Source: an uncultured Paenibacillaceae bacterium (lineage in GTDB: Bacteria > Bacillota > Bacilli > Paenibacillales > K13). Taken from it: a DNA stretch of 64,000 nucleotides. How positions within the stretch are numbered: position 1 is the first letter of the stretch; every line of letters starts with the position of its first letter. Both the position numbers and the translations under genes were made by a program. Location: positions 152,186 to 216,185 of the forward strand of contig CAJXLT010000006.1 of assembly GCA_913056365.1 (NCBI GenBank), given 5' to 3'. This document shows positions 496 through 22,596 of the stretch, piece after piece. The notes below the pieces were generated by a model that was not told the origin of the DNA, searched no databases, and saw only the letters and a list, made by a program, of their open reading frames with translations.

Positions 496-520
496 GACAG
501 GTAGTATTGGAGGAATGACA

Positions 521-1261: not shown

Positions 1262-1290
1262 ATGTAATCGACTTAGTTGGAGGGGACCAG

Positions 1291-2328: not shown

Positions 2329-2378
2329 AGTTTTAGAGTTGGTCCTTAATATTGACAGCATAAGTGCGGGAGGCGTAT

Positions 2379-3161
2379 ATGATGGTTAACTTGTCAAACC
2401 AGGAAAAAGAGGAAATCGTGAAAAGGCTAGTAGTAGAACCGATTCCTCTGTATAACGAGAAGTTTCCCATGATCTTTTTTTGGAGTCCGAAAGGTGGTTG
2501 TACATCACTTATTAAGTGGTTCTATTACCAAATCGGATTATTAGAAGAGGCAATGGACTACAACTCTTGGATACACTACTATAGAATGGAAGTGCACCAG
2601 AATCAGGAGAACTACGTGGCTGAATTAACAAGTCAACTTATTCATAACAGGAAGGCAACATATAAATTAGTTCGAGAGCCTTTCAAGAGGGCTGTTAGTT
2701 CCTTCCTTGCGACTGTAGCCAATGTAGCCATTATGAATCAAATTGCTCCCAATCACGATCAAGGTTTGTCATTTAGACAATTCTTATATCTGATTAAGGA
2801 TATTGGCGTTAACCGGGATAATATCAATCTACACCTTGCTCAGCAATATACAGATGGAGAAGAGTATGTCATCCAACATTATATAAAATTAGAGAGATTT
2901 GAAACGGAGATCAAGAAACTTGAAAGGCAATATCAATTATTAGAATCACCAGTATCCAGTATTATAAAATCCCCCCATCATATGTCGGATCGAATGGTTG
3001 AGAGGGGTTCTTATGTAGACACAAAAATAACTTTACAATCATTCGAATCACTACCTACTTTTGAAAGTTTTTATGATAGGGAAACGGTTGATTTAGTTAT
3101 AAAGTTGTTCGATACAGATTTCCAAAAATTTGGATACGATATGAATTTCATCAATGTCTAA
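2379..3161 (+). CDS. sulfotransferase-family protein (Sulfotransfer_2-like)
   Basis: WSPKGGCTSL matches the PKxGxT(S) PAPS 5'-phosphosulfate-binding loop near the N-terminus. GGGAGG at 2368-2373 precedes ATG 2379/2382. Confidence 0.6.
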   Translation: MMVNLSNQEKEEIVKRLVVEPIPLYNEKFPMIFFWSPKGGCTSLIKWFYYQIGLLEEAMDYNSWIHYYRMEVHQNQENYVAELTSQLIHNRKATYKLVREPFKRAVSSFLATVANVAIMNQIAPNHDQGLSFRQFLYLIKDIGVNRDNINLHLAQQYTDGEEYVIQHYIKLERFETEIKKLERQYQLLESPVSSIIKSPHHMSDRMVERGSYVDTKITLQSFESLPTFESFYDRETVDLVIKLFDTDFQKFGYDMNFINV

Positions 3162-3238: not shown

Positions 3239-3247
3239 TGGTATAAT
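3239..3247 (+). promoter_or_regulatory. extended -10 promoter element TGGTATAAT
   Basis: Exact TGnTATAAT. It overlaps the ORF-track ATG (3246) of the kinase gene, which argues for a downstream start codon. Confidence 0.5.
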
Positions 3248-3293
3248 GGTTCGACATATGACATTCTGTCTGTCTACTCAGAGGGTGGGTTCA

Positions 3294-5258
3294 TTGAAAC
3301 GGACAAAAATTATTTTCATCGTGGGATTTCTTGTTACGATGAGCGCGCTTATTTTGTACTATGTTCATGCTTTGGAGACAACGCCATCGATTCATAACGG
3401 AGCAATCGACCTGTCGAATACGGAATTTAGCGAGGATGGTGTGATTGCGCTTGACGGGGAGTGGGAATTTTATTGGAATCAATTCCTGAGTCCGAGTGAC
3501 TTGGACGGTGAGCAGTATGCGTTCCAATACATGAATGTGCCAGGCAACTGGCTGCGTGACGAAGCAGGCAATACGTATGCGCCGAAGGGGTATGCCACTT
3601 ATCGCGTTACGATCAGCCATATTCCAGATGCGACATACTTTGGGTTGAAGAAGGCGAATATTCGAAACGCGAGCAACATCTATGTGAACGGCAACTTGGT
3701 GCTGGAAGACGGCCAAATCGCGAAGCATCTTGAAGAAAGTGTAGCAGGTAATCATTCCAAAGTTGTGTATTTCGAACTAGAGGAATCGACAGCGGAGATC
3801 ATCGTTCAAGCCTCTAACCATGCGTATATCGTCGGTGGTATTGCGAAGTCGATCACTTTCGGAACACAAGAAGCGCTAACACAGCAGCACTATCTGAAGG
3901 TGTTGTTCGAATTTGCTATGATTCTCGTTGTTGTGGTGATCGGACTGTTCTACTTGTTCATCTATTTCGCCAATAGCAATTATCGCAAGCGAGAGCCAGT
4001 TACGCTCCCGCTTGCGCTGAGCTGTCTATTCTTCGGTGTGATGAATAGTATTTATAGTGAACGGATTATTGCGATTATCCTCCCTGATCTAACCTTAAAC
4101 TCGACATTTCGCTTCGGGCATTTCATGAGTGCGCTTTCTATCATCTTGGTGTGGATTGTAGTGAATAAGGTGAATCGCGTTTTTTTGCCGTATGTATTGC
4201 GAAATATATTGATTGGCTTTTACGGGATTTTTATCGTATGTGTGCTGACATTTCCGCTAGAAATCTATTTGAATATGCTAACCTTTTATATGAGCGCAAC
4301 CGTAGTCTTGTTCCTTGCAGTATGGATCCGAATTGCGGTGCTGTTCATCAAGGCGCATCCTCATGCAAGCAATGTGGAGCATAGCACGCTGGTCGTTACT
4401 ATATTTAGTGTGTTTCTCTTTTGGTTGGATATGATTATGTACAGTTTAGGTGCGAAGACAGATATGCTCATCTCGTTTCTTACGATTTCCGTTTATAGCA
4501 TTGCGTTTGCGATTTTACTTATTGTGCGATATACGAATTCTTATAAGAACAATGAGAAGCTCACGATTCAATTAATTGAAACATTCTCAACGTTAGATCA
4601 GACAACGAGAGAAGCGCAACGCAATGAGTTAGCCTTCTTACAGGCACAGATTAAACCCCACTTCTTATTCAATGCATTGAGCAGTATTATTAGTCTATGT
4701 TATACGAATGGCGAGAGGGCAGGGAAGCTGCTCACAGATTTGTCTGGTTATTTGAAGCGCTCCTTTCAGATCGACATGAATACCGATTTTGTTACGATTG
4801 AGAATGAACTCAGATTGATTCAAGCCTTTGTCGATATTGAGAAAGCAAGATTCGGAGATCGTATTCATGTGAGCTACGATATCGATGACGATGTGTTGCC
4901 ATTGAGAATCATCCCCCTCGTCATTGAGCCGCTTGTGGAGAATGCGATTAGACATGGGGTACTGACTAAGAAAAGTGGCGGTGAAGTTAAGCTCACCATA
5001 AAGAAGCAGGATCAAAGTATATTTATTTGTGTGGAGGATAACGGAAATGGTGTGGAGGCCGGACTGCTTCGTTCGATCTTAAACCAAGAAGGGGAGAAGA
5101 TTCAAGCGAAGGGAAATGGCGTCAGCTTATCGAATATCCATGCAAGATTGCAAAATTATTATGATGTGGAGCTGCAGTTTGATACCAGTCAACAGGGTAC
5201 GAAAGTGTATGTTAAGGTACCAACGAATCATGACCAGGAGGAAGACACCGATGATTAA
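3294..5258 (+). CDS. sensor histidine kinase: 7TMR-DISM extracellular domain, 7 TM segments, LytS/YehU-type His_kinase and HATPase
   Basis: The N-terminal periplasmic domain carries DGEWEFYWNQFL and is followed by about 7 hydrophobic helices. The H-box is QIKPHFLFNALSSI and the ATPase N-box is EPLVENAIRHG. The proposed TTG start at 3294 sits 8 nt after GAGGGTGGG; an alternative ATG is at 3258. Confidence 0.85.
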   Translation: MKRTKIIFIVGFLVTMSALILYYVHALETTPSIHNGAIDLSNTEFSEDGVIALDGEWEFYWNQFLSPSDLDGEQYAFQYMNVPGNWLRDEAGNTYAPKGYATYRVTISHIPDATYFGLKKANIRNASNIYVNGNLVLEDGQIAKHLEESVAGNHSKVVYFELEESTAEIIVQASNHAYIVGGIAKSITFGTQEALTQQHYLKVLFEFAMILVVVVIGLFYLFIYFANSNYRKREPVTLPLALSCLFFGVMNSIYSERIIAIILPDLTLNSTFRFGHFMSALSIILVWIVVNKVNRVFLPYVLRNILIGFYGIFIVCVLTFPLEIYLNMLTFYMSATVVLFLAVWIRIAVLFIKAHPHASNVEHSTLVVTIFSVFLFWLDMIMYSLGAKTDMLISFLTISVYSIAFAILLIVRYTNSYKNNEKLTIQLIETFSTLDQTTREAQRNELAFLQAQIKPHFLFNALSSIISLCYTNGERAGKLLTDLSGYLKRSFQIDMNTDFVTIENELRLIQAFVDIEKARFGDRIHVSYDIDDDVLPLRIIPLVIEPLVENAIRHGVLTKKSGGEVKLTIKKQDQSIFICVEDNGNGVEAGLLRSILNQEGEKIQAKGNGVSLSNIHARLQNYYDVELQFDTSQQGTKVYVKVPTNHDQEEDTDD

Positions 5259-6234
5259 GGCCGTGCTGGTCGATGACGAGATACTCGTATTGAATCTATT
5301 GAAGAGGATCATAACTGAAATTAAGGATATACAAATTATAGGCGCCTATACAGACCCAGAGCAAGCTTTACTAGAAATCCCTACCCTAGCACCGGATGTA
5401 GTGTTCTTGGATGTGGATATGCCGGCATTGAACGGGATTGAACTAGGTACCAAATTAATAGAGTCAGATACTACAGGGGATATGTCAATTGTCTTTGTGA
5501 CGGCGTATGAGCAGTACGCCATTCATGCATTTAAGCTGAATGCGGTTCATTACATATTGAAGCCGGCCGATCCCGATTCTGTCATAGAAGTTGTGAATAG
5601 GCTGAATCAGAAGCGAGAGCAAGTGCCAGCGAAGGTAAGCGAGAGCGGGAAGATTAACTGCTTCGGCCCTATGCATATGCGCGTGAATGGGCACAAGATA
5701 GACTTCTTAACGGCGAAGGTTGAGGAATTATTAGCATTATTGATCATGCATAGAGACAAAGGGATTAGCAAGTGGCGTATTATTGACGTGCTATGGGAAG
5801 AAGCTTCTATAGAGAAATCACAACAAAATCTGTACACGATGATGTTCAGGTTGAAAAAAACGTTGCGACATGCAGGCATTCTGGTCGATGTGAAGAGTAA
5901 GAATGGTATATATCGAATCGTTCTTGATGATGTGCACTGTGATTTAGTAGAGTTCGACAACTTTGTGGAGAAGAAGCCGCAGGTTCAAGATCATAATTTA
6001 GCCGAATTCGAGAGAGTAATAGCGCTCTATCAAGGGGAGCTGTTCGAAGGGAAGGATTACGTATGGTGTATAAACGAGCGAGAGCGGTATTTCCAACAGT
6101 TCGCAACAATTGTAAACCGTGTTATCCATTATTACAGAGACAATAAATGCTTCGAACAGGCAGATACATTGTTGCATGCCGTTAGACAATACGTAAGTGA
6201 GGAAGAGTATGGGCAGCTCAGATATATAGGTTGA
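5251..6234 (+). CDS. response regulator: receiver domain fused to a SARP-type winged helix and a BTAD domain
   Basis: The N-terminus MIKAVLVDDE, then DVVFLDVDMP and ILKP, are receiver motifs. WRIIDVLWEE...LYTMMFRLKKTL is an OmpR/SARP-type wHTH, and ALYQGELFEG is BTAD-like. The ATG overlaps the kinase stop (ATGATTAA at 5251-5258). Confidence 0.85.
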   Translation: MIKAVLVDDEILVLNLLKRIITEIKDIQIIGAYTDPEQALLEIPTLAPDVVFLDVDMPALNGIELGTKLIESDTTGDMSIVFVTAYEQYAIHAFKLNAVHYILKPADPDSVIEVVNRLNQKREQVPAKVSESGKINCFGPMHMRVNGHKIDFLTAKVEELLALLIMHRDKGISKWRIIDVLWEEASIEKSQQNLYTMMFRLKKTLRHAGILVDVKSKNGIYRIVLDDVHCDLVEFDNFVEKKPQVQDHNLAEFERVIALYQGELFEGKDYVWCINERERYFQQFATIVNRVIHYYRDNKCFEQADTLLHAVRQYVSEEEYGQLRYIG

Positions 6235-6247
6235 ACATGTGATAAAG

Positions 6248-6286
6248 CAAGCTTCTTGCATTTCATAATGCAGAGCTTGTTTTTTG
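6248..6286 (+). terminator. rho-independent terminator after the response regulator gene
   Basis: Imperfect hairpin CAAGCTTCTTGCA...TGCAGAGCTTG followed by TTTTTT. Confidence 0.6.
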
Positions 6287-6296
6287 TTGTGAGGAT

Positions 6297-6337
6297 ATTT
6301 TCGAAGTAAGAAAAATGTAAGGAGGCTTTGATAGACT
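6297..6337 (+). promoter_or_regulatory. direct-repeat activator site GTAAG-N6-GTAAGG with a -10-like TAGACT (copy 1 of 3)
   Basis: GTAAGAAAAATGTAAGG lies at 6306-6322, and TAGACT follows exactly 9 nt later. The same module occurs at 11149 and 14841. Confidence 0.55.
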
Positions 6338-6370
6338 TTGAGAATACATCATAGAGAAGGAGAATAATAG

Positions 6371-9300
6371 ATGAAAAAATGGATGGTTATGATGCTGACA
6401 GTGTTTCTCGTATTGACCTATATGCCGCTAGCGCAAGCTGGGGTTGCGTGTGAAACAGGCATCCCGGATGGTGATTTTTGTTATATAGTAAATGATGATA
6501 ATTTAACAGTGACGATTACAGGCTATACAGGCACTGGAGGAGTGTTGGAAATTCCGGGTACTATTGACGGTAACACCGTGACAGTGATTGGGTATTCAGC
6601 CTTTATGTCAAATCAACTAACGAGTGTGACAATCCCAGACAGTGTGCAAACAATCGGAGTAAACGCATTCGCAAACAATCAACTGACAAGTGTAACTCTT
6701 CCGGATGGCGTGACGGAGTTGGGGAGTTTTGCCTTGGCTACGAATCAGTTGACGAGTGTGACGTTCCCGGACAGTGTGACCTCAATCGGAGCTCGCGCTT
6801 TATATCAAAATCCACTCAAGACTGTGGTGATCGATGGAAATGATGAGCAAGGTACCACCATAGGGGATTATGCCATTGGAAGTTTCTCCTTAACGAGTGT
6901 GACGCTCGGAGAAGGTGTGGTCTCCATAGGAACTCAGGCTTTCTATCCGCATCAGCTTACAAGTGTGACGATTCCAGGAAGCGTTAAATCGATAGGGGAA
7001 GGTGCTTTTACAGGGAATCCCGGCGGGGACTCACTCACAAGTGTAACGCTGGGGGAAGGGATCGAAACCATAGGGGATTCGGCCTTTATATTTAATCAGT
7101 TGGCAAGTGTGACGATTCCGGCTAGTGTGACTTCGATAGAAAGCTCGGCTTTTTTAGGGAATCGGATAACAAGCATGACCATTCCCGCCAGCGTCCAAAC
7201 CATAGGTGATCAAGCTTTTTCCAGTAACAAAATGGAACACATTCTGTTTGAAGGTTCTCCAATACTGGGCACTTCAGTTTTCGCACAAACCTGGGGACTC
7301 TATCCAGAATTTGTAGGCTGGTACACCGATCCGGAATTCGCTTCAACATGGGATGGAACAGCTGTGCCAACGGGTAAGGAGGCCTTTGCCCAGAGAAATC
7401 CCGATTCCCCGACAGAGGTGACAGCCGCTGCTGGAGATGGACAAGCGACCGTTTCCTTTACAGCGCCTTCCCATACTGGCAAAAACGCGGTAACAGCGTA
7501 TACTGTCAACGTATATGTGGATGGAGTTGAACAGCAACAAACGACAGGCGTTGCATCACCGATTACGATAACAGGTTTGATGAACGGTACCGCCTATACG
7601 TTTGCAGTCATCGCAACGAATGCGACTGGCGATAGTGTGGAATCCGATGCGACGGATGCGGTGACGCCACTGGCGATATTTGAAACGACGGAAAATGAGG
7701 ATGGGACTTTAACCATCACCAAATACAATGGAACGGAAACCGAGCTCGAAATTCCGGATATGATCGACGGTAAAACCGTGACTGCGATTGGGTTTTCAGC
7801 CTTTTCTTCAAAACAACTGACGAGCGTGACCATCCCGGAGAGCGTCGTAACCATCGGAAGTAGCGCTTTCTCTTTCAATCAATTGACGAGCGTAACATTT
7901 GAAGATGGCGTCGAAACCATAGGGCCGCATGCCTTTTCCCAAAATAGCTTGATAAGCGTGACCATTCCTGAAAGCGTGACCTCGGTAGGCACAGGTGCTT
8001 TTGCGGGTAATATGTCGCTTGAGAGTGTGAACATCTATGGCAATGATGATGATGAGCTGGGCACCAGCATAGGGACCAATGCTTTTGGAAATACCTCCTT
8101 AACGAGTGTGACGCTCGGTGAAGGTGTGACCTCTATCGGGGATGTTGCTTTCCAATACAATCAGCTCACAAGTTTGACCATTCCGGGAACGGTCACCTCC
8201 ATCGGAAGTAACGCCTTTAAAGAGAACTCGCTCAAGAGTTTGACAATCAAGGAGGGGGTAGAAAATATAGGCTCTTCGGCCTTTTCTTCCAATCAACTAA
8301 CTAGCGTGACGATTCCTAATAGTGTGAAGAGTGTGGGGGTATCTGCCTTTTCGAACAATCGATTGGAACGTATCACCTTTGAAGGGACGCCGACGTTGGC
8401 TGTGAATGCCTTTTTACATTATTATACCGGCTTTGAAGGCTGGTATACAGATGCTAGCGTAACGGAAGAATGGACTGATCAATTGTCCCTGCCCGTGAGT
8501 GGCGAATTATATGCAAGGACAACATGGCCGGCTTCGCCATCAAATGCAAGTGCGGAAGCCGGTGATGCCCAAGTGATTGTATCCTTCACCGCACCAACGT
8601 ATTCAGGTGAATCGGAGATCACAGGGTATACCGTGAAGGTGTATGTGGATGGAGTTGAACAATCCGGACTGAAAACAACAGGTGATCAGTCTCCGATTAC
8701 TGTAACGGGTTTAACGAACGGCACAGCCTATACTTTTAAGGTCATCGCATCGAATGCTGCAGGTGATAGTTTAGAATCCGCTGCATCGAATGCTGTAACA
8801 CCGGTCGAAGAATATAATGTGACGTATGATGGGAATGGCAATCACACAGGAAGTGTGCCCACGGATTCCAACTCGTACGAGCAAGGGTCTGAGGTTACTG
8901 TGCTGGACAATGCCGGAAATTTAGAAAAAACAGGTCAATCGTTTGCTGGCTGGAATACAGCATCAGACGGTAGTGGTACACTTTATGAAGCGGGAGATAC
9001 ATTCAACATCGGAAACGTGGGTGTTACGTTATATGCGGTTTGGAAGTCATCCCATGCCGAATTGAACGGCCTGAGCATCAGTGATGGCACATTAACACCT
9101 GGGTTCTCTTCCCAGAAAACAAGCTATACCGTCGACGTGGCCTATGAAGTAAGCAGTGTTACCGTCACAGCAGCCGTGTATGACAGCCATTCCACCTTAA
9201 AGGTGAATGGAACGAGTGTGACAAGCGGCAGTGCTTCATCGGCGTTGAGCCTGGACGAAGGAAATAATACGATTACAGTAGAAGTGACCGCTCAGAATGG

Positions 9301-11047
9301 AACGGCCAAAGAATATACGATTGTTGTTAATCGAGCAGCAGCGCCATCGACCAACTCCGATCTAAACGCCCTGAGCATCAGTGAAGGAACGTTAACGCCT
9401 AGCTTCTCACCCGGGACAACAAGCTATACTGTAGACGTGGTCTATGATGTAAGCAGTGTGACCGTCACAGCAGCCGTGTATGACAGCAGCGCAGCGCTGC
9501 GAGTGAATGGATCAAGCGTCACAAGCGGCAGTGCCTCATCGGCTCTGGCCTTGGTTGAAGGAGAGAATACCATTACGGTAGTAGTGACCGCTGAGGATGG
9601 AACGACTCGAAATTATACCATCGTGGTGAATCGAGCAGCAGATGATCGTGATGATAGACACTCTGGGAATGGAAACACTGGAAATAATCAAACGACAACA
9701 GAAGAAATCACAGTTGAAGTGGAAAGTGGAAATGATGGAACAACGGTTTCAACAACAACCATTAAGAGAACGAAAGATAATGAAGGACGAATCAAGGACG
9801 AAGTCGTCTTATCGGAAAATAGTGCGAAAGAAACGATTCAAAAGCTTAGGGCACAAGAGGATGACACAGCGAGCATCGTGATTCCGGATACCAAGGATGA
9901 AGTAAGCGAGGTTCATGTAATCATCCCGAAAACAGCCTTAAATAAACTGAAAGAAGGAAACATAAATCTAGAAATAAAAACAGCCAATGCAAAGCTTGCG
10001 ATTCCAGCTAGCACACTTACTCAGTTTGATGAAGACATCTATTTTAGAGTTGTACCTATTAAGGATCAAACAGAAAAAGAGCAGGTTGAAGAACGTGTTA
10101 AGCTAGAAAAAATGATTCAAGAAGTGGCAGCGAATAAGGAGATTCAAATTCTCGGCAGACCTGCCGTGATAGAAACGAATATGCAAAACCAAATCGTATT
10201 AGTGACCATGCCATTGCAAAGTGAAGATTTATCATTGCATGAACAAGAAAGACAGAAGGTGTTTAATAATTTGGCAGTTTTTGTTGAACATAGCGATGGA
10301 ACGAAAGAGCTGGTTAGCAGTGAGGTCACAGCCAATGCTGACGGGACGTGGGATATTGCATTTGAAATCGATAAATTCAGTACCTTTTCGATGGTCCATT
10401 TGGAAGGTGCTGAACAATATTTCGCACAGTCCGAAGAGCCAATGATGCATCAAGCTTATATTGCAGGCTATGCAGACGGCACCTTCAGGCCGGATCAGCA
10501 CGTAACACGTGCAGAAATGGCATCGCTTCTGGCACGAAACCTGACGACGAAGGCAAGTGAACATACCGAGTTTACAGATTTGGTCGATACACACTGGGCG
10601 TATGACAGCATTCAACAGGTCGTGGCAGCTGGCTTGATGAAGGGCTATCCAGGTGAAGTGTTCAAGCCGGATGCCATCATGACAAGAGCGGAAATGGCTG
10701 CAATTGTTCTCCAATGGAACGATCTGCAAGCGTCCAATGAATCCCAGGTGTTCATGGATACAGAGAATCATTGGGCGGCAGGCATCATTGCAGCCGTGTC
10801 CCACGATAACGTGATGAATGGCTATCCAGATGGATCATTTAAACCGGATCAAACCTTGAGTCGAGCAGAAGCTGTTACCGTCATCAACAGTCTATTGGAG
10901 AGAGGTCCGCTACACGGCGTTGAGAAGAACATCTGGCCAGATGTTCCCACAACGCATTGGGCTTATCCGGCGATCCAGGAAGCATCGATGAGTCATAGCT
11001 TTGAAATCGCAGAGGGCGTAGAATCCTTTGTGGAAGAAGTAGAATAA
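6371..11047 (+). CDS. giant S-layer-homology surface protein (BspA-type LRR x2, FN3 x2, Listeria-Bacteroides repeat, 2 cadherin-like domains, 3 SLH)
   Basis: A signal peptide is present (MKKWMVMMLTVFLVLTYMPLAQA). LTSVTIPxSVxSIGxxAF leucine-rich repeats occur in two blocks, each followed by an FN3-like PSxVTA..TGYTV..DG domain. YNVTYDGNGN...GWNT...LYAVW is a Flg_new-type repeat. The C-terminus has three SLH motifs (TRAEMA/TRAEMAA/SRAEAV contexts). Confidence 0.9.
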   Translation: MKKWMVMMLTVFLVLTYMPLAQAGVACETGIPDGDFCYIVNDDNLTVTITGYTGTGGVLEIPGTIDGNTVTVIGYSAFMSNQLTSVTIPDSVQTIGVNAFANNQLTSVTLPDGVTELGSFALATNQLTSVTFPDSVTSIGARALYQNPLKTVVIDGNDEQGTTIGDYAIGSFSLTSVTLGEGVVSIGTQAFYPHQLTSVTIPGSVKSIGEGAFTGNPGGDSLTSVTLGEGIETIGDSAFIFNQLASVTIPASVTSIESSAFLGNRITSMTIPASVQTIGDQAFSSNKMEHILFEGSPILGTSVFAQTWGLYPEFVGWYTDPEFASTWDGTAVPTGKEAFAQRNPDSPTEVTAAAGDGQATVSFTAPSHTGKNAVTAYTVNVYVDGVEQQQTTGVASPITITGLMNGTAYTFAVIATNATGDSVESDATDAVTPLAIFETTENEDGTLTITKYNGTETELEIPDMIDGKTVTAIGFSAFSSKQLTSVTIPESVVTIGSSAFSFNQLTSVTFEDGVETIGPHAFSQNSLISVTIPESVTSVGTGAFAGNMSLESVNIYGNDDDELGTSIGTNAFGNTSLTSVTLGEGVTSIGDVAFQYNQLTSLTIPGTVTSIGSNAFKENSLKSLTIKEGVENIGSSAFSSNQLTSVTIPNSVKSVGVSAFSNNRLERITFEGTPTLAVNAFLHYYTGFEGWYTDASVTEEWTDQLSLPVSGELYARTTWPASPSNASAEAGDAQVIVSFTAPTYSGESEITGYTVKVYVDGVEQSGLKTTGDQSPITVTGLTNGTAYTFKVIASNAAGDSLESAASNAVTPVEEYNVTYDGNGNHTGSVPTDSNSYEQGSEVTVLDNAGNLEKTGQSFAGWNTASDGSGTLYEAGDTFNIGNVGVTLYAVWKSSHAELNGLSISDGTLTPGFSSQKTSYTVDVAYEVSSVTVTAAVYDSHSTLKVNGTSVTSGSASSALSLDEGNNTITVEVTAQNGTAKEYTIVVNRAAAPSTNSDLNALSISEGTLTPSFSPGTTSYTVDVVYDVSSVTVTAAVYDSSAALRVNGSSVTSGSASSALALVEGENTITVVVTAEDGTTRNYTIVVNRAADDRDDRHSGNGNTGNNQTTTEEITVEVESGNDGTTVSTTTIKRTKDNEGRIKDEVVLSENSAKETIQKLRAQEDDTASIVIPDTKDEVSEVHVIIPKTALNKLKEGNINLEIKTANAKLAIPASTLTQFDEDIYFRVVPIKDQTEKEQVEERVKLEKMIQEVAANKEIQILGRPAVIETNMQNQIVLVTMPLQSEDLSLHEQERQKVFNNLAVFVEHSDGTKELVSSEVTANADGTWDIAFEIDKFSTFSMVHLEGAEQYFAQSEEPMMHQAYIAGYADGTFRPDQHVTRAEMASLLARNLTTKASEHTEFTDLVDTHWAYDSIQQVVAAGLMKGYPGEVFKPDAIMTRAEMAAIVLQWNDLQASNESQVFMDTENHWAAGIIAAVSHDNVMNGYPDGSFKPDQTLSRAEAVTVINSLLERGPLHGVEKNIWPDVPTTHWAYPAIQEASMSHSFEIAEGVESFVEEVE
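9058..9640 (+). repeat. in-frame tandem duplication, 2 x 300 bp (cadherin-like beta-sandwich domains)
   Basis: CTGAGCATCAGTGA occurs at 9071 and 9371, and TCGAGCAGCA at 9331 and 9631. The offset is exactly 300 nt, and nucleotide identity is high across the unit. Confidence 0.85.
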
Positions 11048-11107
11048 TAATTGAAACTCTTATGAATCCTGATTTTTTTGGAGTTTCAAATTGTAGTCCA
11101 TTGAATA

Positions 11108-11149
11108 AGCGGGTATTACACATGAATGGTGTGGGGTACCCGCTTTTTG
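11108..11149 (+). terminator. rho-independent terminator
   Basis: AGCGGGTA (11108-11115) pairs with TACCCGCT (11137-11144) and is followed by TTTTT. Confidence 0.75.
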
Positions 11150-11190
11150 TCGAACGATGTAAGAAAAATGTAAGGACGGTCTGATACCAT
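11149..11190 (+). promoter_or_regulatory. direct-repeat activator site GTCGAACGAT-GTAAG-N6-GTAAGG with a -10-like TACCAT (copy 2 of 3)
   Basis: GTAAGAAAAATGTAAGG lies at 11159-11175 and TACCAT at 11185-11190, a 9-nt gap identical to copies 1 and 3. Confidence 0.55.
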
Positions 11191-11255
11191 TGAATGAAGT
11201 GTGAACGATGACTAGAAAAAATCTTGTATAATCAAGCAGCAAAGGAGATCCAAAC

Positions 11256-14200
11256 ATGAAACCAACAAGAAGAACAAGAGAGATGATCGTGGCCGTCATA
11301 GTAACAGTTGCTATGGTAATGGGGCTTATTCCCCAGGTGGCAAATCCTCTGTTGGCGGCAGGTCCACCTGTCGCATCCGTAACCATAGACGGTGTTACGA
11401 CGGAACACAGCTCGTTTATAAATGGTGATACTGGTGCATGGGACCAGACACGTAGAGCTAGTAATATAGGGAAACCTATTACTGTAAAGTTACTCCATGA
11501 CGTTACAGTGGATGAAGAGTTGAGGGTTGTATCAGGCAGTGAGATTACCATTGATCTAAATGGTTTCGCCATCGATCGCGGTTTAAATTATCCCGTTGCG
11601 GGCGGGCGCGTTATATATATGGAAAGTAGTAGTCATCTTACGATTACGGATAGCAGCAGTACAGACATTGCAGATCAGGGTAAAATTACCGGTGGGTATA
11701 GTACTGGTGGAGGAGCGGGGATATTCATGAATGGTAGTGACGCTGAACATCCATCTACTCTCACTATAACCGGCGGGAATATCACCAACAATGTCGCCAC
11801 AAGTAGTACGCAGTTAGCTGATGGAGGAGCCATCTACGTCAATCAAAATGCCAACTTGATTATGACAGGTGGCAGTATTACCGACAATGTAAGCAACGGT
11901 AACGGCGGCGGTGTATATCTCGCTGGTACATTTACCATGAGTGGCGGCAGCATTACAGACAACAAGGCTAATGTGGGGAAAGATATCATTTGGCATGGGG
12001 GCGGTGGTGTATACGTAGCGTTGAACGCATCGTTTACAGTCAGTGGTGCTGTGAACATAACAGATAATCACAACGACGTTGACAATAAGGACGATAATGT
12101 CAAGTTGTTTAATGAATCAACACATATAGATGTTACGGGCTCTTTGGCTGATGCAAGTATTGGCGTACACATAGGCAGAAATACAGCGGGTGATGGCGTG
12201 TTCACCACAGATTATGATGCTCACAACAACGGCGTGGATCCTACGACCATCTTCACCGCTGACCACGTAGACAGATATGTACAATGGACTTCCGATAAGC
12301 ATGAAGCTGAGTTGGTAGTGGATCCTAGACCCACTCTTACTTACGATGCAAATGGCGGAACAGGAACGGTTGCAACCCAAAAAGCAGAGGTCGGCACGCC
12401 AATCATCATCTCCGCCAATGGATTCACTAAAGCTGGACACATCTTTCTAGGTTGGACAGATCATCCTATGAATCCGGATCCGAATATAACCTTGAAATAC
12501 GCAGTGGGGAAATCATTACTCCTCGAGGCAGAAGAAAGGTTTACCCTTTATGCAAAGTGGAAGAAGCTTAATCATGACGAATATGCCGTTACCTATCATG
12601 CGAATGGCGGTACAGGCGATGTTGCAAGTCAAATTACCAAAGTAGGGACAGATACAACCGTCTCTGCCAATGGATTTACGAATGGCGGTAAAGTCTTCAC
12701 CGGCTGGAACACGGCTGCGGACGGAACGGGTACGGCCTATGAAGCGAGTGGGATGGTGCCTTCTCAAAGCGAGGGTACGGTAGTAAACCTCTATGCACAG
12801 TGGAGTGATCGTCCAAGTGCGACCTACACCGTAACCTACGATGCGAACGGCGGCACAGGTACGGTTGCAAGCCAAACGACGAATGTAGAGACAGCAACGA
12901 CTGTTTCCGCCAACGGATTTACCAGAGCTGGCTACACCTTTACCGGCTGGAACACAGCTGCGGACGGAACGGGTACGGCCTATGCAGCTGGCGCAACCGT
13001 GCCGTCCCAATTAGAAGGAACAACGGTCACCCTTTACGCACAATGGGAACAGTCGACAGCAAGCACGCATGCTATTACAGGGACGGTAACCGAGGCCACT
13101 TATGGCCCGGCAGCTGGTGCAAGCGTGAAGCTGATGAAGGGGAAACTGCAAATCGGAACGCAGGGTGTGACCACAGGTCCAGGTGGCGAATTCACGATTG
13201 AAGATGTACCGAACGGCATTTATAATCTTGTGATTGCACATACAGACGGTACAACCGTGACGGTGAAGGTAGAAATAGTAGGTCATGATTATACGTTCGA
13301 AGAGGCCATTTCCCTTCCGCCTGGCAAGACGAGCAGCCTCGTTGAGGTAAAAGCAGGAACACCCGATATTGTTGTCGGCAATCTTGACAGCCAGTTTGAT
13401 GCTGCTGACAAAGACTTTGCACTGATTCCTAACCATGCAGTAGAAATCAAGCTTATTGCAGAGAAGAAGGATACAGACCAAGTAGCAACAGATGCAACGA
13501 AAATTACCGCTGTTGCAAGTCAGCAAACAATAGGAGTGTATCTCGATTTATCGGTGACAAAAATCAAGACCGTAACGGGTGCGACTTATAGCGAAGAGAC
13601 CATGCGCACACTGCCAGATATCGTTGAAATCATTGTTCCACTTCCATCGGAGCTTACAGGCAAGGATGGATTGACGGTGTACCGTGTGCATAATGGCACT
13701 GCTGCTGCATTGCCGAATGGTTCTGCAAATGCAGTAGATGGTGAATATTATGAAGTTGTGGGAGATGACATCATGATTCACACCAAGAGGTTCTCTACCT
13801 ATGCCATTGGCTATAACACGCCAACACCACCAACAACGCCAGGTAGTGGAAGTTCACGTGGCGGCGCAGGGCAGCCAACGATTCCGACCATCACTGTAGA
13901 GCCGCTGGAGGATGGAGACATAATCGTCAGCAAGGATGCGAAGAAAGCGGATATGGTTCCCAAGGATGGCTATGTCATTGCAGATGTCATCGTAGATGGT
14001 AAGAGCATAGGGGCAACGGATACGTATACCTTTACAGACAACCATGACCACAATATCAGCGCCGTTTTTGTCAAGGCCATGGCGTTACCTTATTACGATC
14101 AAGATGGCGAGAACATATACATTGGATTCTCTGCCATTCATACAAATCTCTACAAATACATCGCACCTGACGGTGTTATCGTAGAGTTTGAGGAGAATCC

Positions 14201-14753
14201 CAAGCACTTTACAGACAATACGATCGCATGGGCCAAGCCAAGCATCGACTTTGTGACAGAACGTGAAATATTCGCAGGAACCGCACAACATACCTTTAGT
14301 CCGAATGAAGCGATGACAAGGGCTATGTTTGTAGCCGTCATCGGCAGACTGTATGAACGTTCTTATGGACATGTTGCAGGAACAAGTGCATTCTTGGATG
14401 TTGATGAGGAGAGTTACTATGCCAAGTATGTAGCATGGGCACATGAAACGGGCATCATCAAGGGCGTCGGTGAGAATAAATTTGCTCCAGAAGAGAAGGT
14501 GACGCGTGAGCAAATGGCGGTGATCCTGCGAAATTTCGCCACCTTCTTAGAGAAGGGCAATGTGGAAGGTGAAACCCTTGCCTATTCGGATAGCGCAAGC
14601 ATCTCAACGTGGGCGGTCGACGGTGCTGCATATACGCAGGAGACAAATGTGATAACAGGCAGAGATGGCAACACCTTTGCTCCTCAAGAACAGGCAACAA
14701 GAGCCGAAGTGGCAGCTGTTATGGAGAGGTTTATTAACACAATAGTGAAGTAG
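11256..14753 (+). CDS. SLH surface protein (beta-helix-like Gly-rich repeats, 3 Listeria-Bacteroides repeats, CarboxypepD_reg-like domain, 3 SLH)
   Basis: A signal/anchor sequence is present. GGAIYV/GGGVYL/GGGGVYVA repeats are typical of right-handed beta-helix adhesins. Three YDANGGTG...GWNTAADGTGTAY...LYAQW repeats follow, and the C-terminus has three SLH motifs. Confidence 0.9.
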   Translation: MKPTRRTREMIVAVIVTVAMVMGLIPQVANPLLAAGPPVASVTIDGVTTEHSSFINGDTGAWDQTRRASNIGKPITVKLLHDVTVDEELRVVSGSEITIDLNGFAIDRGLNYPVAGGRVIYMESSSHLTITDSSSTDIADQGKITGGYSTGGGAGIFMNGSDAEHPSTLTITGGNITNNVATSSTQLADGGAIYVNQNANLIMTGGSITDNVSNGNGGGVYLAGTFTMSGGSITDNKANVGKDIIWHGGGGVYVALNASFTVSGAVNITDNHNDVDNKDDNVKLFNESTHIDVTGSLADASIGVHIGRNTAGDGVFTTDYDAHNNGVDPTTIFTADHVDRYVQWTSDKHEAELVVDPRPTLTYDANGGTGTVATQKAEVGTPIIISANGFTKAGHIFLGWTDHPMNPDPNITLKYAVGKSLLLEAEERFTLYAKWKKLNHDEYAVTYHANGGTGDVASQITKVGTDTTVSANGFTNGGKVFTGWNTAADGTGTAYEASGMVPSQSEGTVVNLYAQWSDRPSATYTVTYDANGGTGTVASQTTNVETATTVSANGFTRAGYTFTGWNTAADGTGTAYAAGATVPSQLEGTTVTLYAQWEQSTASTHAITGTVTEATYGPAAGASVKLMKGKLQIGTQGVTTGPGGEFTIEDVPNGIYNLVIAHTDGTTVTVKVEIVGHDYTFEEAISLPPGKTSSLVEVKAGTPDIVVGNLDSQFDAADKDFALIPNHAVEIKLIAEKKDTDQVATDATKITAVASQQTIGVYLDLSVTKIKTVTGATYSEETMRTLPDIVEIIVPLPSELTGKDGLTVYRVHNGTAAALPNGSANAVDGEYYEVVGDDIMIHTKRFSTYAIGYNTPTPPTTPGSGSSRGGAGQPTIPTITVEPLEDGDIIVSKDAKKADMVPKDGYVIADVIVDGKSIGATDTYTFTDNHDHNISAVFVKAMALPYYDQDGENIYIGFSAIHTNLYKYIAPDGVIVEFEENPKHFTDNTIAWAKPSIDFVTEREIFAGTAQHTFSPNEAMTRAMFVAVIGRLYERSYGHVAGTSAFLDVDEESYYAKYVAWAHETGIIKGVGENKFAPEEKVTREQMAVILRNFATFLEKGNVEGETLAYSDSASISTWAVDGAAYTQETNVITGRDGNTFAPQEQATRAEVAAVMERFINTIVK
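12333..13046 (+). repeat. three tandem Listeria-Bacteroides (Flg_new) repeats of ~75 aa each
   Basis: Units lie at about 12333-12560, 12582-12803 and 12825-13046. The last two share long identical nucleotide runs (GGCTGGAACAC.GCTGCGGACGGAACGGGTACGGCCTATG). Confidence 0.8.
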
Positions 14754-14796
14754 GCACAAAATAGGCACAAGAACACGGCAATGAAGATCAATTTCA

Positions 14797-14840
14797 TAAG
14801 CGAGTCGTACACATGTATTTGTATAGGACTCGCTTATTTT
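14797..14840 (+). terminator. rho-independent terminator
   Basis: TAAGCGAGTC (14797-14806) pairs with GACTCGCTTA (14827-14836) and is followed by TTTT. Confidence 0.75.
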
Positions 14841-14882
14841 GTCGAACGATGTAAGAAACATGTAAGGGCCGTATAGTACTAT
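14841..14882 (+). promoter_or_regulatory. direct-repeat activator site GTCGAACGAT-GTAAG-N6-GTAAGG with a -10-like TACTAT (copy 3 of 3)
   Basis: GTAAGAAACATGTAAGG lies at 14851-14867 and TACTAT at 14877-14882, again with a 9-nt gap. Confidence 0.55.
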
Positions 14883-14916: not shown

Positions 14917-17900
14917 ATGAAGAAACGAAAATCATGTTTTGGAATGATAATGACGTTCATTATGATGTTGTCTATATTTCCAATAGTCCCGATGACGGCA
15001 CACGCCGCTGATGGGTGTGATGCAAGTGCGCGCGCAGAATTTGGCGGCCTTGATAATAAAAACCTATTCTTGGGCGGCAAATATATCGAGCTCGGGATTA
15101 GCCAATGGGGGGATTTTGGTACAGAAGGTATTATGCATTATCCCGTGCCAGGGGATAGGCCAGCTAACTTTCACGGAACGGATCAAAGACAAAATATCGC
15201 AATGAGTGCTGATCATGACGGTTTCTGTCAAGGAGTAGACCTTCCTGTAGACTACTTTCTACCGGGTAGCCCTGAGGAACGATTTGCGGTTGGTTATACG
15301 TCTCACCCGGATGACACAAGGGGAGGTATCTCACAATCCAATAGTGCATTGATGGATGGGGAGTCCAACGGAATGGGCACAATTAAGTCCAAGCTAATGC
15401 CCACTACAGTCACCAACACTTCGGATTTGGACAACGGTATACTAAGCGCGACAATCGTGTCGTATTGGCGAAATGGAAGTCTCAGCCCTAAAATGGAAGT
15501 TACACAAGTCATTTCATTCCATGAAGATGACAAATTTTTTCGGAATGAGGTTACCCTTAAGAACATAACGGATGAAGGTGACTATCCCCAATCCTGGACA
15601 GGGGCAAGGTATACGCGCTCGCTTGACCCTGACAATACAGTAGACCAAAATGATGGTAGATTTTATGAAACAAGAAATGTGGTTACCCATACTGTGGCCG
15701 AGGACGGCATGGCAGTGGTCAAAGCAGAATCACATCTAGATGATGATAAGTTATACCAAGCATTCAACTCGAGGATGCCGATTTTCTACTACTCTAGCGA
15801 CCCTATGGCGAGGGGCTCCGTCTTTGGTAGAGGTGTTGTCGAACCTTATACGGATCAAGTCTATAATAGGCCACGGCCGAAAGGCGACGCCTGGGTGAAC
15901 GATGTATCAATCGGAATGACTTGGGATGCGGGACCTCTGGAACCCGGTGAGACGAGCGATGTCTTCACCTACTATACGAGCTTGGATGAGCGAGTTTTCG
16001 AGGAAGTCATGGCGGATATTAAGTTGGATGAATCACGAAGCCTCCCCCTTATAGAGGCGGAGACAAACGACGGTACGGTGCCCGGCAATCAAAAGGTGGT
16101 TGTCTCGGGGGCAACACTTGTGGAGCCCTTGGACATGGATCATATTCGAGTGAACAACCTTCCCGCGGGATTAGGGTTTGAGACCACCCGCCTCAGTGAT
16201 ACAGAACTGGATATTCAATTGACGGGCAAGGCCATGCAACATAGCTCGGAATTTTCAGTGGATCATTTGTCAATAACGATCGGTAAGGAGAATGTAATGG
16301 GCAGTTCTTCGGACTTGACTACGAAGAGCTTCTCTATTATGTTCCGCGATCCTCCTGAGCTCAGTGTGTACCCTGGCGTTATCAACGCTAGATTTTATAA
16401 TAGTTTAGGTTACGCCTTTCCTCAAAGTGAAAACATTGAATTGTCGATCCAGGACGGAAAGTTTGCTGAGGATATTCAAGCTGCAGATATACAAGTGAAT
16501 CATCTTCCAGCAGGATTGCAACATGCAATGAGAGTAGAAAGACTTTCAGACAAGAAGCTAAAGATCACATTTGATAATGGATTTACTTCGGTAGCGGAGG
16601 ATGTAAACAATGTATCCATTACCGTCGCCGCAGACAAGCTCATTGGAAGCCCGGATGAACTGACTTCCAACACCTTCAAGATGAATTTTGAGGAGAAGGA
16701 ACCTTTTCTAACGGTTGCAACGCCGCTGCTTTATGAGTCGAAGGCAAATGATGGCTCCATCGATGATAAGCTGGTTTTGGAATTCCTGAACGGCACCTTG
16801 CCAGAATCGGTGACGGAGTCTGTATACGCGGAGGCGGTGAATTGGCCTTCAGGGCTGTACATTGGTGAGGTTACACGGGACAATGACACACAGCTTACCT
16901 TGTCGATTGCAGGACAAGCGGATAACCACAGTGTGACGGATAGTGTCTACGATGCGCAAGTGAACATGATGAATATGATGTCCAATACCTTCTCGATCAT
17001 ATTCCGTTCACCACCGCCGTACATTACGGCATCTCCAGACATCATTGGTTACGCAGAGGATGGTACCGGTATAGATGTCTTGACGGTTGCCTTGAACAAC
17101 GGAATCTTTGCTCAGGATATGAGTAGTGGTGTTACGCTCAATAACTTGCCAGAGGGACTCAGCTTTGCAGTGGATCGGATCAGTGATACGGAATTAGAGA
17201 TTCATTTTACAGGAGGCAATATCCAGAAGAATACAGCCACTCCATTCGCTTCCGTGACGGTTGAGGCTGCCAAAGTGATCGGCGCTGAAGCCCCGCTTAC
17301 TTCTAATTTTGTTGAATTACAGGTACCACAGGATGATGCGCAAGCGAATCTGGATGCTGTCGATCTGACATGGGATACCATCAGAGAGGAGAATATTCTG
17401 CAATCTTCTGTGACGACAGATGTGGATCTGTTAACCGAGGGCAAGTACGGAAGTACCATCACATGGACGTCTTCCGATGAATCGGTGATCGCGCTGGATG
17501 GCCAGGTGACGAGGCCGGGAACGGATGAAAGCGATCAGGCAGTGAAGTTGATTGCAGAGATCACTTACGGCACGGTATCACTAACGAAGCCATTTGATCT
17601 AATCGTGAAGAAGCTAGAAGAGAGCTTACCCGCACAGCCTCTAACTTTCGATAATGTGACGAATGGTGCGGTTACGAAAACCTATGGTGACTCGAGGTTT
17701 ACTTTCACCGCAACTAGCACTAAAGCTGACGGCGGACCCATTTCTTATAGCAGCAGTGATGAGAAGGTAGCCACTGTGGATGCAGCAACAGGTAAGGTTG
17801 CCATGCACAAGGCGGGTGAGGCTACGATTACCGCTACAGCGGCAAAAGTACCAGGACTGTATGGGAAATCTACAGCTACGTATGTATTAACCGTTAATCC

Positions 17901-20900
17901 CAAAGCGTTAACTTGGAATCCTGACGGTATAGTAAAGGACAAGCTATATGATGGCACAGCAGCGGCTGTACTGGAACAAGCACCGACTCTGTCAGGCGTT
18001 GTGAATGGCGACGCGGTGACCGTTACAGCGGGAAATGTACAGTTCGCCGATGTAACTGCAGGAACAGGTAAAACTATCATTGCGGATGGCTGGGGGATGG
18101 AAGGTGCAGACGCCAACAATTATACTGTACCAACAGTTCAGCCAACTTTTCAAAGTGCCGATATTACGAAGCTGCAGCTCACAGCCACAGCAACGGCAAC
18201 TGACAGAGCTTATGATGGGACTACGGCAGTTGAAGTTACGCTTACACCAACGAATACAGTTGGATTGGATCAAGTTTCTCTAACGGCAACAGGTACGATG
18301 GCCGATGCCAATGCAGGGACGAATAAGCCTGTGACGATCTCCGACATTCAGTTAAGTGGCAGTGATGCAACCAACTATATGGCGCCTGCTAACCTGAATA
18401 CAACGGTCAATATAACAAAAGCGAGCACAGGATTGGCAGCAACTTCACCTATTTTGATTTATATTCATAGCTCGGATACGGATGATAATACCTTGGAATT
18501 ATCAACAACGCTGAACCCAACAGGTGCGGCTGATCCGGGTGCGATAACCTATACGCTTGATACATTAACGAATTCGGATAGCGTACTAGCTGGAAGCCCT
18601 GTGTTGAATGGCACTACGCTAACCTACACAGGGAATGGGCAGCTAACAGGTACAGCGACACAACATATTAGAATAGCAAGCGATAACTATGCAGATATCA
18701 TCGCTACCATCATCTTCGAAGCTACCGACAAGACAGAAGCAACGGTTACCGTGACCCCGCCGGCCAATATTACGTATGGACAGCGTTTAGGTGATCCAAT
18801 CGCAGGCGTTTCGGAAAGCGTAACAGACGAAGACTATACGTTGAGCTATTCCGGAACACTCACATCGGGGACGCCTTACGGTCCAAGTGAGACGAAACCT
18901 ACCAATGCGGGCAGCTATACCGTGATGGCAACGTTGAATAGTGCTGTTTACTATGGCAGTGACTCGGCGAGCTTCACGATTGCGAAGGCAATGCCTACAG
19001 GCGAACCGGCGTATACCGAAATTAGTGAAGCTGGAGAAACGCTTGCTATCACTAATTTAACAGGTGAATTTACAAATCCGCATAATAGCGATGCTGTGGA
19101 AGGTCACTTAACTTGGGACGACGGAGACAGCGCAACAGTTACACAAGGGACATCGTATGATTGGACATTCACGCCGAATGCTACGAATAATTATTATGTA
19201 GTGACAGGGTCGATCATACCGTGGCCGGCACCTCCCGGCGGCGATATTGCAGGAACGTTAGACATTACAGGAACACCTAGTTACGGGTATGTACTAACGG
19301 GCAATGTCAACCTAACCGGCGATCCATGGGGGAACTTGACCTATACGTGGAAACGTGGAACGACGGTATTGCAGACGAGTACGAAGACAGGAGATACAGA
19401 CACCTATACGATTCAGGCAGGGGATATAGGGAGCACCATTACCCTTGAAGTGACATCCGATTACTATGCGGGTACGCTGACTGCAAGTACAGACGTAGTT
19501 ACTCGACGCACTGTTCAGGAGCCTTCTCCGCCGATCGTGGAGAGCGCAACGAAATTCTCCATTACATTACGGGCAGCCGGCGGATATGAGTATACGATAG
19601 ACAACGGCAACACCTGGCAGGACAGTCCAGTATTCACGGGACTTACGCCAAGCACGACGTATACATTCCAGCAGCGAATCAAGGCAACACCGACCAGCTT
19701 TGCTTCAGACATGAGCGGTACTGCGGAAGGAACGACCTTGGATAAGGAGCAGCTCCAGCAACCTGACAATCTGCGTTGGGACACAACTGGAACGGAAGTG
19801 CTTGCCAAGTGGGATGACGTACCGAACCACTCTGGTTACATTGTGCAGCTATATAAGGACGGGGTTCCAGTGGGCGACCCGATCGATATCAACCAGACTT
19901 CCTATGACTTCTCAGCAGCTATAGCGGCTGGCGGGGACGGGATCTATACGTTCACCGTGCTAGCTAAGGGCGACAACGTCAGCTATATCGATAGTCGGAA
20001 GTCGAGGGTTACTACAGCTTATGTGGCGAAGGAAACCCGCAACGTTACCGGCAAAGTTGAAGATGAACATCATAATCCGGTGCATGATGCAGAAGTGAGA
20101 GTGATGCAGGGGAATACGCAAATCGGCATCACGGTCATGACAGCACTGGACGGAACGTTTACCATAACGGGTATTCCTGCAGGCTCCTATAACCTTGTGA
20201 TCACGAAGGGTGATCAGCGGGTCACACGCTACTTCACGGTTGGAGATACGGATTATATTTTCCAAGAAGTTATCACTCTGCCAAGCGGTAAGAAGAACTC
20301 CGTGCTTCAAGTAGCACAGGATACACCGGATGTTGTCGTTGATAAATTAGACGATATGTTCAACCAGCCAGAGATTTATACGCCGGAGGATGATGCAACA
20401 GTTGCAGGCGGAGGTAAGGTTGAAATCAAGCTCTCCGTGGAGAAGAACGACAATGCTGCACATGTAACGGAAATGTCGAACGCGGCAAGCTCCGGCGGTT
20501 ATACGATGGGGACAGCACTGGACTTGAATGTTACGAAGACAGCGACGGACAATGTGGGAGCTGTAACGGCATTCACACCGATATCGGATACGCAGGTGCT
20601 GCTGACTATTGTCATACCGATTCCTGAACATGAGCAGGGCAAGTCAGCCTATCGATTAATTCGTGCTCATGATTACGAAGACGGCAACGGTGTTGTAACG
20701 GAATATATCAGCCCAACAGCTAATGCCAATGGTGAGAGAATAGAAGTCAACGCAGATAAGACCATCATCACGGCCTACGTTCGCTACTTCTCTACGTATG
20801 CGATTGCGTATCCAGATGGCTCGCAATCGGGTGGCGGCTCCGGCAGCAGCTCGAGTGATCAAATTGGTGGCAGGACCACGAACACCATCGTCATCGTAGA

Positions 20901-22122: not shown

Positions 22123-22160
22123 CGAGAATTCTTGTTGTGTACAAGGATTCTCGTTTTTTT
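22123..22160 (+). terminator. rho-independent terminator
   Basis: CGAGAATTCTTG pairs with CAAGGATTCTCG (one G-U pair) and is followed by TTTTTTT. Confidence 0.7.
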
Positions 22161-22560: not shown

Positions 22561-22596
22561 ACAGCTATAGGAAAGAACGGCAAGAGTCGATGAATG

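Follow-up and report, generated by a model that had tools for sequence, protein, structure and literature searches.

A conserved GTAAG direct-repeat box as the predicted operator of a receiver-SARP regulator ahead of three giant surface-protein genes

How might a bacterium bring three very large surface-protein genes, each closed off from its neighbors by transcription terminators, under a single control? The question is raised by a 64-kb stretch of DNA from an uncultured Paenibacillaceae bacterium (assembly GCA_913056365.1, contig CAJXLT010000006.1, positions 152,186 to 216,185 of the forward strand; hereafter "the window", whose own coordinates are used for its features). In this window, a two-component operon that encodes a membrane histidine kinase and a response regulator is followed by three giant genes, and the same 17-nt box precedes each of the three. 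Here, we argue that this 17-mer is probably the operator of the adjacent regulator, a protein composed of a receiver and a SARP effector, and that together with an extended -10 element it would form three activator-dependent sigma-A promoters that have no -35 element.

The box, GTAAGAAA(A/C)ATGTAAGG (pattern GTAAGAAAMATGTAAGG), has three matches in the window, all on the + strand and lying in order ahead of giant genes 1, 2 and 3 (table 1). No fourth match was found within the 64 kb even when two mismatches were allowed; in 100 shuffled versions of the window the matches averaged 0.01, and in no shuffle did they reach three. A first-pass annotation of the window had claimed three copies of the 17-mer, an intrinsic terminator immediately before each of them, the hexamers TAGACT, TACCAT and TACTAT exactly 9 nt after them, two pentamers 11 nt apart in the place of a missing -35 box, and an upstream stretch common to copies 2 and 3, and each of these claims held when it was reexamined. 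By direct reading, 11 nt separate the starts of the two GTAAG pentamers in every copy and a TAnnnT hexamer stands exactly 9 nt past every box; no TTGACA-like hexamer was found 16–18 nt upstream of the three -10 hexamers. Each box begins 10–20 nt past a hairpin and its U-tract, and the stretch GTCGAACGAT lies immediately 5' of copies 2 and 3. Identity between the intergenic regions is limited to 17–18 nt (copy 1 vs. 2 or 3) and 31 nt (copy 2 vs. 3), and the proteins of genes 1–3 are only 21–36% identical within the domains that they have in common. Hence, the box is a discrete element and not the leftover of a segmental duplication, and a recent duplication does not explain the repeat. An Rfam scan of the whole window found no RNA family, and thus no riboswitch (for example, one for cyclic di-GMP) in the 5' regions of the giant genes. 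A third repeat (GTCGAA, 10 nt further upstream) was considered and is not claimed here; it is present in some loci only and its distance is variable.

The decisive evidence that links box and regulator is a cross-genome comparison. Orthologues of the regulator were located by protein similarity, not by the motif, which gave 15 loci (41–66% identity to the regulator) from Bacillaceae, Paenibacillaceae, Sporosarcina, Thermincola and Tepidanaerobacteraceae. They include Niallia tiangongensis, Bacillus piscicola, Ornithinibacillus californiensis, Sporosarcina PTS2304, Gorillibacterium timonense, Thermincola, Paenibacillus TRM 82003, Paenibacillus PL2-23, P. algicola, a Tepidanaerobacteraceae metagenome-assembled genome (MAG) and several further assemblies; an alignment-based locus search was swamped by generic receivers through their FVTAYEQY pattern and gained one orthologue. 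When the box was defined as GTAAG-N6-GTAAG with at most one mismatch in the two pentamers, it was found 3' of the regulator stop codon, on the same strand, in 13 of the 15 loci, and in 12 of these it lies 64–301 nt past the stop (+301 in L115; +73 to +220 in L317–L320, where L320 has a second copy at -14 in addition to that at +220). For the first 11 loci, the box is at most 300 nt past the stop in eight, where the expectation is 0.007 per locus (binomial P ~6e-16). The neighboring genes are otherwise wholly different between the orthologue loci. In Paenibacillus sp. PL2-23 (L200), the box is upstream of the kinase gene instead of past the regulator. The distance from the box to TAnnnT is also kept across the loci (N9, with N10 in a few), the TG of an extended -10 is present one base before the hexamer in 12 of 17 aligned sites, and the hexamers are mostly suboptimal (TAGACT, TACCAT, TAGGAT, TAAACT). 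The GTAAG box is mostly absent from the loci of more distant homologues with a full-length BTAD (26–37% identity, L116–L130), and it is therefore specific to this regulator subfamily. The genes that lie past the box mostly encode one giant secreted protein, from about 800 to more than 3200 amino acids (aa) long, with SLH, LRR_5, aBig_2, Flg_new or Big domains; such genes were seen in Paenibacillus, Gorillibacterium, Thermincola, Sporosarcina and several MAGs.

The same comparison can be turned back on the window and extended to genomes at large. A position weight matrix built from 12 sites in other genomes only recovers the three window copies, with the scores given in table 1, and no other site above 8 bits on either strand of the window (128 kb); no box precedes the fourth giant gene (22844–31234), which had been described at the outset as lacking the motif. 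The exact 17-mer has 110 sites in 109 DNA stretches among 185,579 genomes (596 Gb), which is about the chance level. Only seven of these 110 sites have TAnnnT at N9, and four of the seven adjoin an orthologue of the regulator: two in Paenibacillus sabuli, one in N. tiangongensis and one in Sporosarcina GW1-11. The 17-mer occurs once in the complete N. tiangongensis chromosome, and in P. sabuli and Sporosarcina GW1-11 it is found only beside the regulator. The first-pass annotation had asked for such a scan and had named a motif frequent throughout the genome as grounds for abandoning its proposal; since in three genomes the 17-mer is confined to the regulator locus, this objection falls away as far as the exact sequence is concerned. 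The putative regulon is compact as seen over the 64 kb of this window.

The protein encoded next to the boxes combines a receiver with an effector. Its receiver (Response_reg, 75 bits in Pfam) has an acidic pocket, a phospho-acceptor Asp and the conserved Thr and Lys, and the residues D8, D9, D54, T84 and K104 are invariant in 25 orthologues. A profile search of the PDB puts this receiver nearest the MrkE/LytR/AraT subtype, which fits a partner kinase with a PF06580 His_kinase domain. In the effector, Trans_reg_C was matched at residues 153–208 with 24 bits, under the cut-off of 26.2, and BTAD (PF03704) had no Pfam match even at E<=5. An AlphaFold2 model of residues 128–327 (pLDDT 93.8, pTM 0.88) had only six Foldseek matches with E < 1e-3, all of them to the SARP domains of AfsR (8k60, 8hvr) or EmbR (2ff4, 2fez); their query-normalized TM-scores are 0.66–0.73 over 191–213 columns, and structural alignments of 191–204 columns with AfsR and EmbR span both the winged helix and the BTA part. 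The winged helix of the model also aligns to DNA-binding domains of the OmpR family, and a phmmer search of the PDB sequences ranked EmbR first (5.8e-7) and AfsR next. The SARP match needed the effector to be modeled apart: Foldseek with the whole protein gave receiver and OmpR-family regulators only, and receivers dominated a full-alignment profile search of the PDB. About 65 close relatives (41–78% identity, ~304–350 aa) have the same short form; relatives at 35–43% identity are ~375 aa long and contain PF03704, and the window regulator aligns with the first part of their BTAD and ends ~50 residues early. As modeled, the effector is a SARP domain in which the BTA part is cut short. The initial description of a receiver-SARP-BTAD regulator thus stands for the receiver and the SARP fold, on the combined evidence of Pfam, Foldseek and phmmer, but not for a complete BTAD. 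The predicted recognition helix, KSQQNLYTMMFRLKK (K189, Q192, N193, L194, T196, R200, K202), is invariant among the orthologues, in agreement with the invariance of the box.

The kinase gene, whose stop codon overlaps the regulator start by 8 nt, accompanies the regulator in nearly every orthologue locus examined, the exception being P. sabuli (L066). Hydropathy indicates one plus about seven transmembrane segments with a loop of ~180 aa between. The first-pass annotation had called this protein a 7TMR-DISM kinase. Its topology agrees with that name, and over residues 16–285 it matches a Thermincola kinase recorded with PF07695 at 31% identity (E 3e-33), but Pfam gave no 7TMR-DISM match even at E<=5 and a comparison with a bona fide 7TMR-DISM GGDEF protein showed no similarity. 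Since topology and one homologue are what back the label, we regard it as plausible but not established; to name an envelope or carbohydrate signal for the kinase is speculation. The first ATG of the kinase gene (3246) sits within a perfect extended -10 (TG at 3239–3240, TATAAT at 3242–3247), so the listed ATG start is probably wrong and the two-component operon seems to have its own promoter, without a box. The true start is probably the TTG at 3294, behind AGAGGGTGG, from which a protein of 654 aa (MKRTKIIF...) would be made; the orthologues have 646–667 aa.

What these elements could do together may be set out as follows. The kinase, which is of the LytS/YesM His_kinase type and has a membrane sensor module of 1+7 transmembrane segments, would phosphorylate Asp54 of the regulator. 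The two GTAAG repeats, separated by one helical turn and spanning about -38 to -17 (with the -10 hexamer set at -12 to -7), would then be occupied head-to-tail by two regulator molecules. By analogy with the structures of AfsR and RNA polymerase, the SARP dimer would take the place of the -35 as the contact of sigma region 4, and sigma-A polymerase would be recruited to the TGnTAnnnT (extended) -10 element. The three giant SLH-anchored genes would all switch on together, as separate but co-regulated units, because each is bracketed by terminators. A SARP target consists of direct repeats with a spacing of 11 or 22 bp, of which the 3' one is 8 bp from the -10, and the SARP overlaps and substitutes for a poor -35 (PMC10936776). 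The initial comparison of the box to SARP-like 11-bp direct repeats over the -35 agrees with this published rule (PMC10936776): if GTAAG and the two following bases are taken as a heptamer, 8 bp separate it from TAnnnT at all three window sites and at most foreign sites, a correspondence of geometry only.

Several observations weigh against activation in this manner. In AfsR, the BTA domain makes the polymerase contact; that of the window regulator is ~50 residues shorter, and the AfsR mechanism may therefore not carry over fully. Of the three sites, copy 3 is the weakest: its spacer contains a C, it has no TG extension and there is a rival TATAGT at N4. Gene 2 has, in the interval from box 2 to its start codon, a second sigma-A-like extended -10 (TGTATAAT, 11225–11232) that has no box; it could allow basal expression without the regulator, and gene 2 may thus not depend strictly on the regulator. 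The P. algicola locus (L199) has no box, and its downstream SLH gene is a 59-aa fragment. In two species, finally, the box precedes a VTC/CotH/glycosyltransferase operon and not a giant surface protein.

The alternative that best withstands the evidence is that the regulator binds the box but represses, in that its binding at -38 to -17, a site overlapping the core promoter, occludes polymerase at extended -10 promoters. Such promoters can fire without a -35, and the TG extension in 12 of the 17 sites would be in keeping with this. However, the characterized SARPs are all activators and the geometry here is the same as the activating one (PMC10972967; PMC10936776), and mostly suboptimal -10 hexamers are what would be expected of activator-dependent promoters; we judge repression quite unlikely. 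Another possibility is that the box is read by a direct-repeat regulator encoded elsewhere, for example, one of the OmpR/PhoP family, and that the adjacent two-component genes are incidental. Direct repeats with an 11-bp period are also the design of OmpR/PhoB-family boxes, AfsR shares an overlapping site with PhoP in Streptomyces (PMC10972967), and among the matches listed there are many GTAAGAAAnnTGTAAG-N10-TAnnnT sites, in other phyla, that have no SARP-like open reading frame (ORF) within 8 kb. Nonetheless, 13 of the 15 orthologue loci, which come from different orders and whose other neighbors differ, have the box past the regulator, and the exact 17-mer is restricted to the regulator locus in three genomes, which makes this possibility decidedly improbable.

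Some extracytoplasmic function (ECF) sigma factors recognize GTAAC-like -35 motifs. This, together with the missing canonical -35, would allow the GTAAG element to be taken for the -35-like sequence of an alternative sigma factor of this type. But GTAAG is repeated here in tandem and in direct orientation with a period of 11 bp, its pentamers lie ~21 nt and ~10 nt from the hexamer, neither at the 16–18 bp spacing of sigma factors, the hexamers are sigma-A-like TAnnnT, often with TG, and not the CGTC of the ECF type, and the orthologue loci have no conserved sigma factor gene; an ECF promoter is very improbable indeed. That the three copies are the nonfunctional remnant of a local duplication of a terminator-promoter cassette is scarcely credible, for although copies 2 and 3 have 31 nt in common, including GTCGAACGAT, the flanking hairpins, 5' untranslated regions and coding regions are unrelated, and the preservation of the box and its spacing in distant families and classes already contradicts it. 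An operator at which the adjacent SARP-type regulator would activate transcription thus remains the reading that we prefer.

Individual orthologue loci have features of their own. In B. piscicola (L111, 11109–19552) and O. californiensis (L112, 8178 onward), GTAAGAAAAATGTAATA-N9-TATACT stands ahead of the operon mentioned above, which encodes a 297-aa protein, a VTC-domain protein, DUF4956, a CotH kinase, a 699-aa protein, a HEAT-repeat protein and a family-2 glycosyltransferase. In N. tiangongensis (L110, 11049–12990), the box and the -10 are intact and no ORF of more than 120 aa follows for ~1.9 kb; its target gene has possibly decayed. The box, with TATAAT or TACGAT at N9, is found upstream of the two-component genes in P. 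sabuli (L066, 7541–7525, - strand) and PL2-23 (L200, 7814), which suggests positive autoregulation in some species; the operon in the window lacks a copy in this place. All that separates this upstream box from the regulator in P. sabuli is a 123-aa ORF, with no full-length kinase ORF before the regulator, and the kinase may have been lost or truncated. Sporosarcina sp. PTS2304 (L317) has three repeats 11 bp apart, GTATG, GTAAG and GTAAG, followed by TAAATT (7939–7981), and its LRR_5 surface-protein gene (8022–13211) is apparently split by an ISL3 transposase insertion.

A broad pattern scan that included the -10 found a SARP-like ORF in 11 of 116 loci among the matches listed. The same listed matches contain five loci from Chloroflexia MAGs (L209, L303, L255, L300, L301) with GTAAGAAAATTGTAAGG-N9-TATGCT or TAAGCT. 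In L209 and L303, a large SARP-like ORF (1149 and 653 aa, respectively) that begins directly with the winged helix and has no receiver lies upstream of the box, and specificity for GTAAG may be common to a broader clade of SARPs outside the actinobacteria. Nine other loci among the listed matches, from Desulfuromonadales, Desulfobulbaceae and other MAGs (L223, L236, L241, L248, L256, L260, L263, L269, L270), have GTAAGAAAAATGTAAGA-N9-TATAAT, TACAAT, TACACT or TAAAAT, often after AAAAT, and no SARP-like ORF in the 8-kb block.

Table 1. Positions in the window of the two-component genes, the boxes with their predicted -10 hexamers, the target genes and the terminators (TM, transmembrane segment; z, hairpin score against shuffled sequence)
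Feature	Position	Strand	Remarks
Sensor histidine kinase: signal-anchor TM, ~180-aa extracytoplasmic domain, 7 TM, His_kinase (PF06580), HATPase_c	3246..5258	+	Pfam, hydropathy
Response regulator, 327 aa: receiver and SARP effector (OmpR-type winged helix, shortened BTA; effector as modeled)	5251..6234	+	
Intrinsic terminator, kinase-regulator operon	6244..6286	+	hairpin -19.7 kcal/mol, z -3.2, then UUUUUUG
Box 1, GTAAGAAAAATGTAAGG	6306..6322	+	two GTAAG repeats 11 bp apart; 42.9 bits with the matrix from foreign loci
Predicted -10 hexamer TAGACT, TG at -15/-14 (TGATAGACT)	6332..6337	+	9 nt past box 1
Target gene 1, 1558-aa secreted protein: LRR_5 (BspA-type), fn3, Flg_new, Cadherin-like, 3 SLH	6371..11047	+	
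Intrinsic terminator, gene 1	11107..11149	+	hairpin -23.5 kcal/mol, z -3.9, then UUUUUG
Box 2, GTAAGAAAAATGTAAGG at 11159-11175, with upstream GTCGAACGAT at 11149-11158	11149..11175	+	38.1 bits
Predicted -10 hexamer TACCAT (TGATACCAT)	11185..11190	+	9 nt past box 2
Target gene 2, 1165-aa secreted protein: Flg_new, CarboxypepD_reg, 3 SLH	11256..14753	+	
Intrinsic terminator, gene 2	14796..14841	+	hairpin -21.3 kcal/mol, z -5.0, then UUAUUUUG
Box 3, GTAAGAAACATGTAAGG at 14851-14867, with upstream GTCGAACGAT at 14841-14850	14841..14867	+	26.2 bits
Predicted -10 hexamer TACTAT, without TG extension	14877..14882	+	9 nt past box 3
Target gene 3, 2391-aa secreted protein: aBig_2, Big_2, YDG, MBG_3, CarboxypepD_reg, SLH	14917..22092	+	
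Intrinsic terminator, gene 3; end of the predicted regulon in the window	22123..22160	+	13-bp stem, -20.3 kcal/mol, z -5.6

The products of genes 1–3 (table 1) amount to 5114 aa, in line with the ~5100 aa of three SLH adhesin-like proteins that had first been estimated. They have the attributes of SLH-anchored surface proteins, that is, hydrophobic, signal-peptide-like N-termini and C-terminal SLH repeats; the Pfam E-values of the SLH domains at the C-termini of the products of genes 1–4 are 1e-23 to 1e-35. The four hairpins of the table (-19.7 to -23.5 kcal/mol, z -3.2 to -5.6), each with a U-run, have the form of Rho-independent terminators. Between gene 3 and the box-less gene 4 (22246–22843) is a 104-aa acidic ORF with a terminator-like hairpin after it, and past gene 4 (31264–33822) there are a DUF6904 protein and a divergent WYL/helix-turn-helix (PafC-like) regulator. 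The genes upstream of the kinase (28–3161) encode an ABC-2 permease and an ATPase (TagG/TagH-like), a 366-aa protein and a sulfotransferase, which suggests the export and modification of a cell-wall polymer beside the SLH-protein genes.

SARPs are usually viewed as regulators through which actinobacteria control antibiotic synthesis; in the window, an effector of this type would stand on a classical phosphorelay in the Bacillota, accompanied by a conserved and well-defined operator/promoter architecture. Full-text literature searches found no description of receiver-SARP regulators or of this box, and the databases only name the architecture, for example, as "two-component SAPR family response regulator". 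We suggest tentatively, as a proposal whose chances fall somewhat short of even, that the receiver-SARP protein, its PF06580 kinase and the GTAAG-N6-GTAAG box constitute a widespread and unstudied switch dedicated to giant surface proteins in the Bacillota. If true, SARP-type "sigma adaptation" would here be seen for the first time outside the Actinomycetota and under direct phosphorelay control; the same box beside receiver-less SARP-like proteins in Chloroflexia MAGs would then imply that the GTAAG specificity is ancient in a non-actinobacterial SARP clade. One regulator, one 17-bp box and three promoters offer a ready system in which to ask if the "sigma adaptation" of AfsR suits a Bacillota sigma-A and a short BTA. 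They also provide a concrete hypothesis for the control of giant, S-layer-associated, adhesin-like proteins that are very costly, and the signature of box plus regulator could be used to annotate regulons in genomes and metagenomes.

The closest known parallels are the Streptomyces SARP promoters (AfsR and the afs box, ActII-ORF4, DnrI, RedD). In common with the window system, they have a regulator with the fold, as modeled here, of an OmpR-type winged helix and a BTA domain, repeats one helical turn apart over a missing or poor -35, a 3' heptamer 8 bp from the -10 and, as we would expect here, activation by replacement of the contact between sigma region 4 and the -35. The differences are nonetheless considerable: the host belongs to the Bacillota and not the Actinomycetota, the effector is joined to a phospho-receiver and has a histidine kinase as its partner, instead of being stand-alone or NOD/TPR-fused and controlled by Ser/Thr kinases, the BTA is ~50 residues shorter, the repeat is GTAAG and not of the TCGAG type, and the predicted targets are giant surface proteins instead of antibiotic gene clusters. 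With PhoB/OmpR and the Pho box, the system would share a receiver-controlled winged helix that binds head-to-tail to 11-bp repeats replacing the -35, ~10 bp from the -10; however, the window protein has an additional BTA, its receiver is of the LytR/MrkE/AraT type and its kinase belongs to PF06580 and not to HisKA. EmbR of Mycobacterium tuberculosis is the best PDB sequence match for the effector (E 5.8e-7; TM 0.66–0.72), but it has a C-terminal FHA domain, is controlled by the Ser/Thr kinase PknH and has no receiver, which the window regulator possesses. LytSR and YesMN, finally, resemble the window system in the PF06580 and HATPase_c domains that follow a polytopic sensor, in the receiver subtype and in the overlap of the kinase and regulator genes; their output domains are LytTR or AraC, whereas that of the window regulator would be a SARP.

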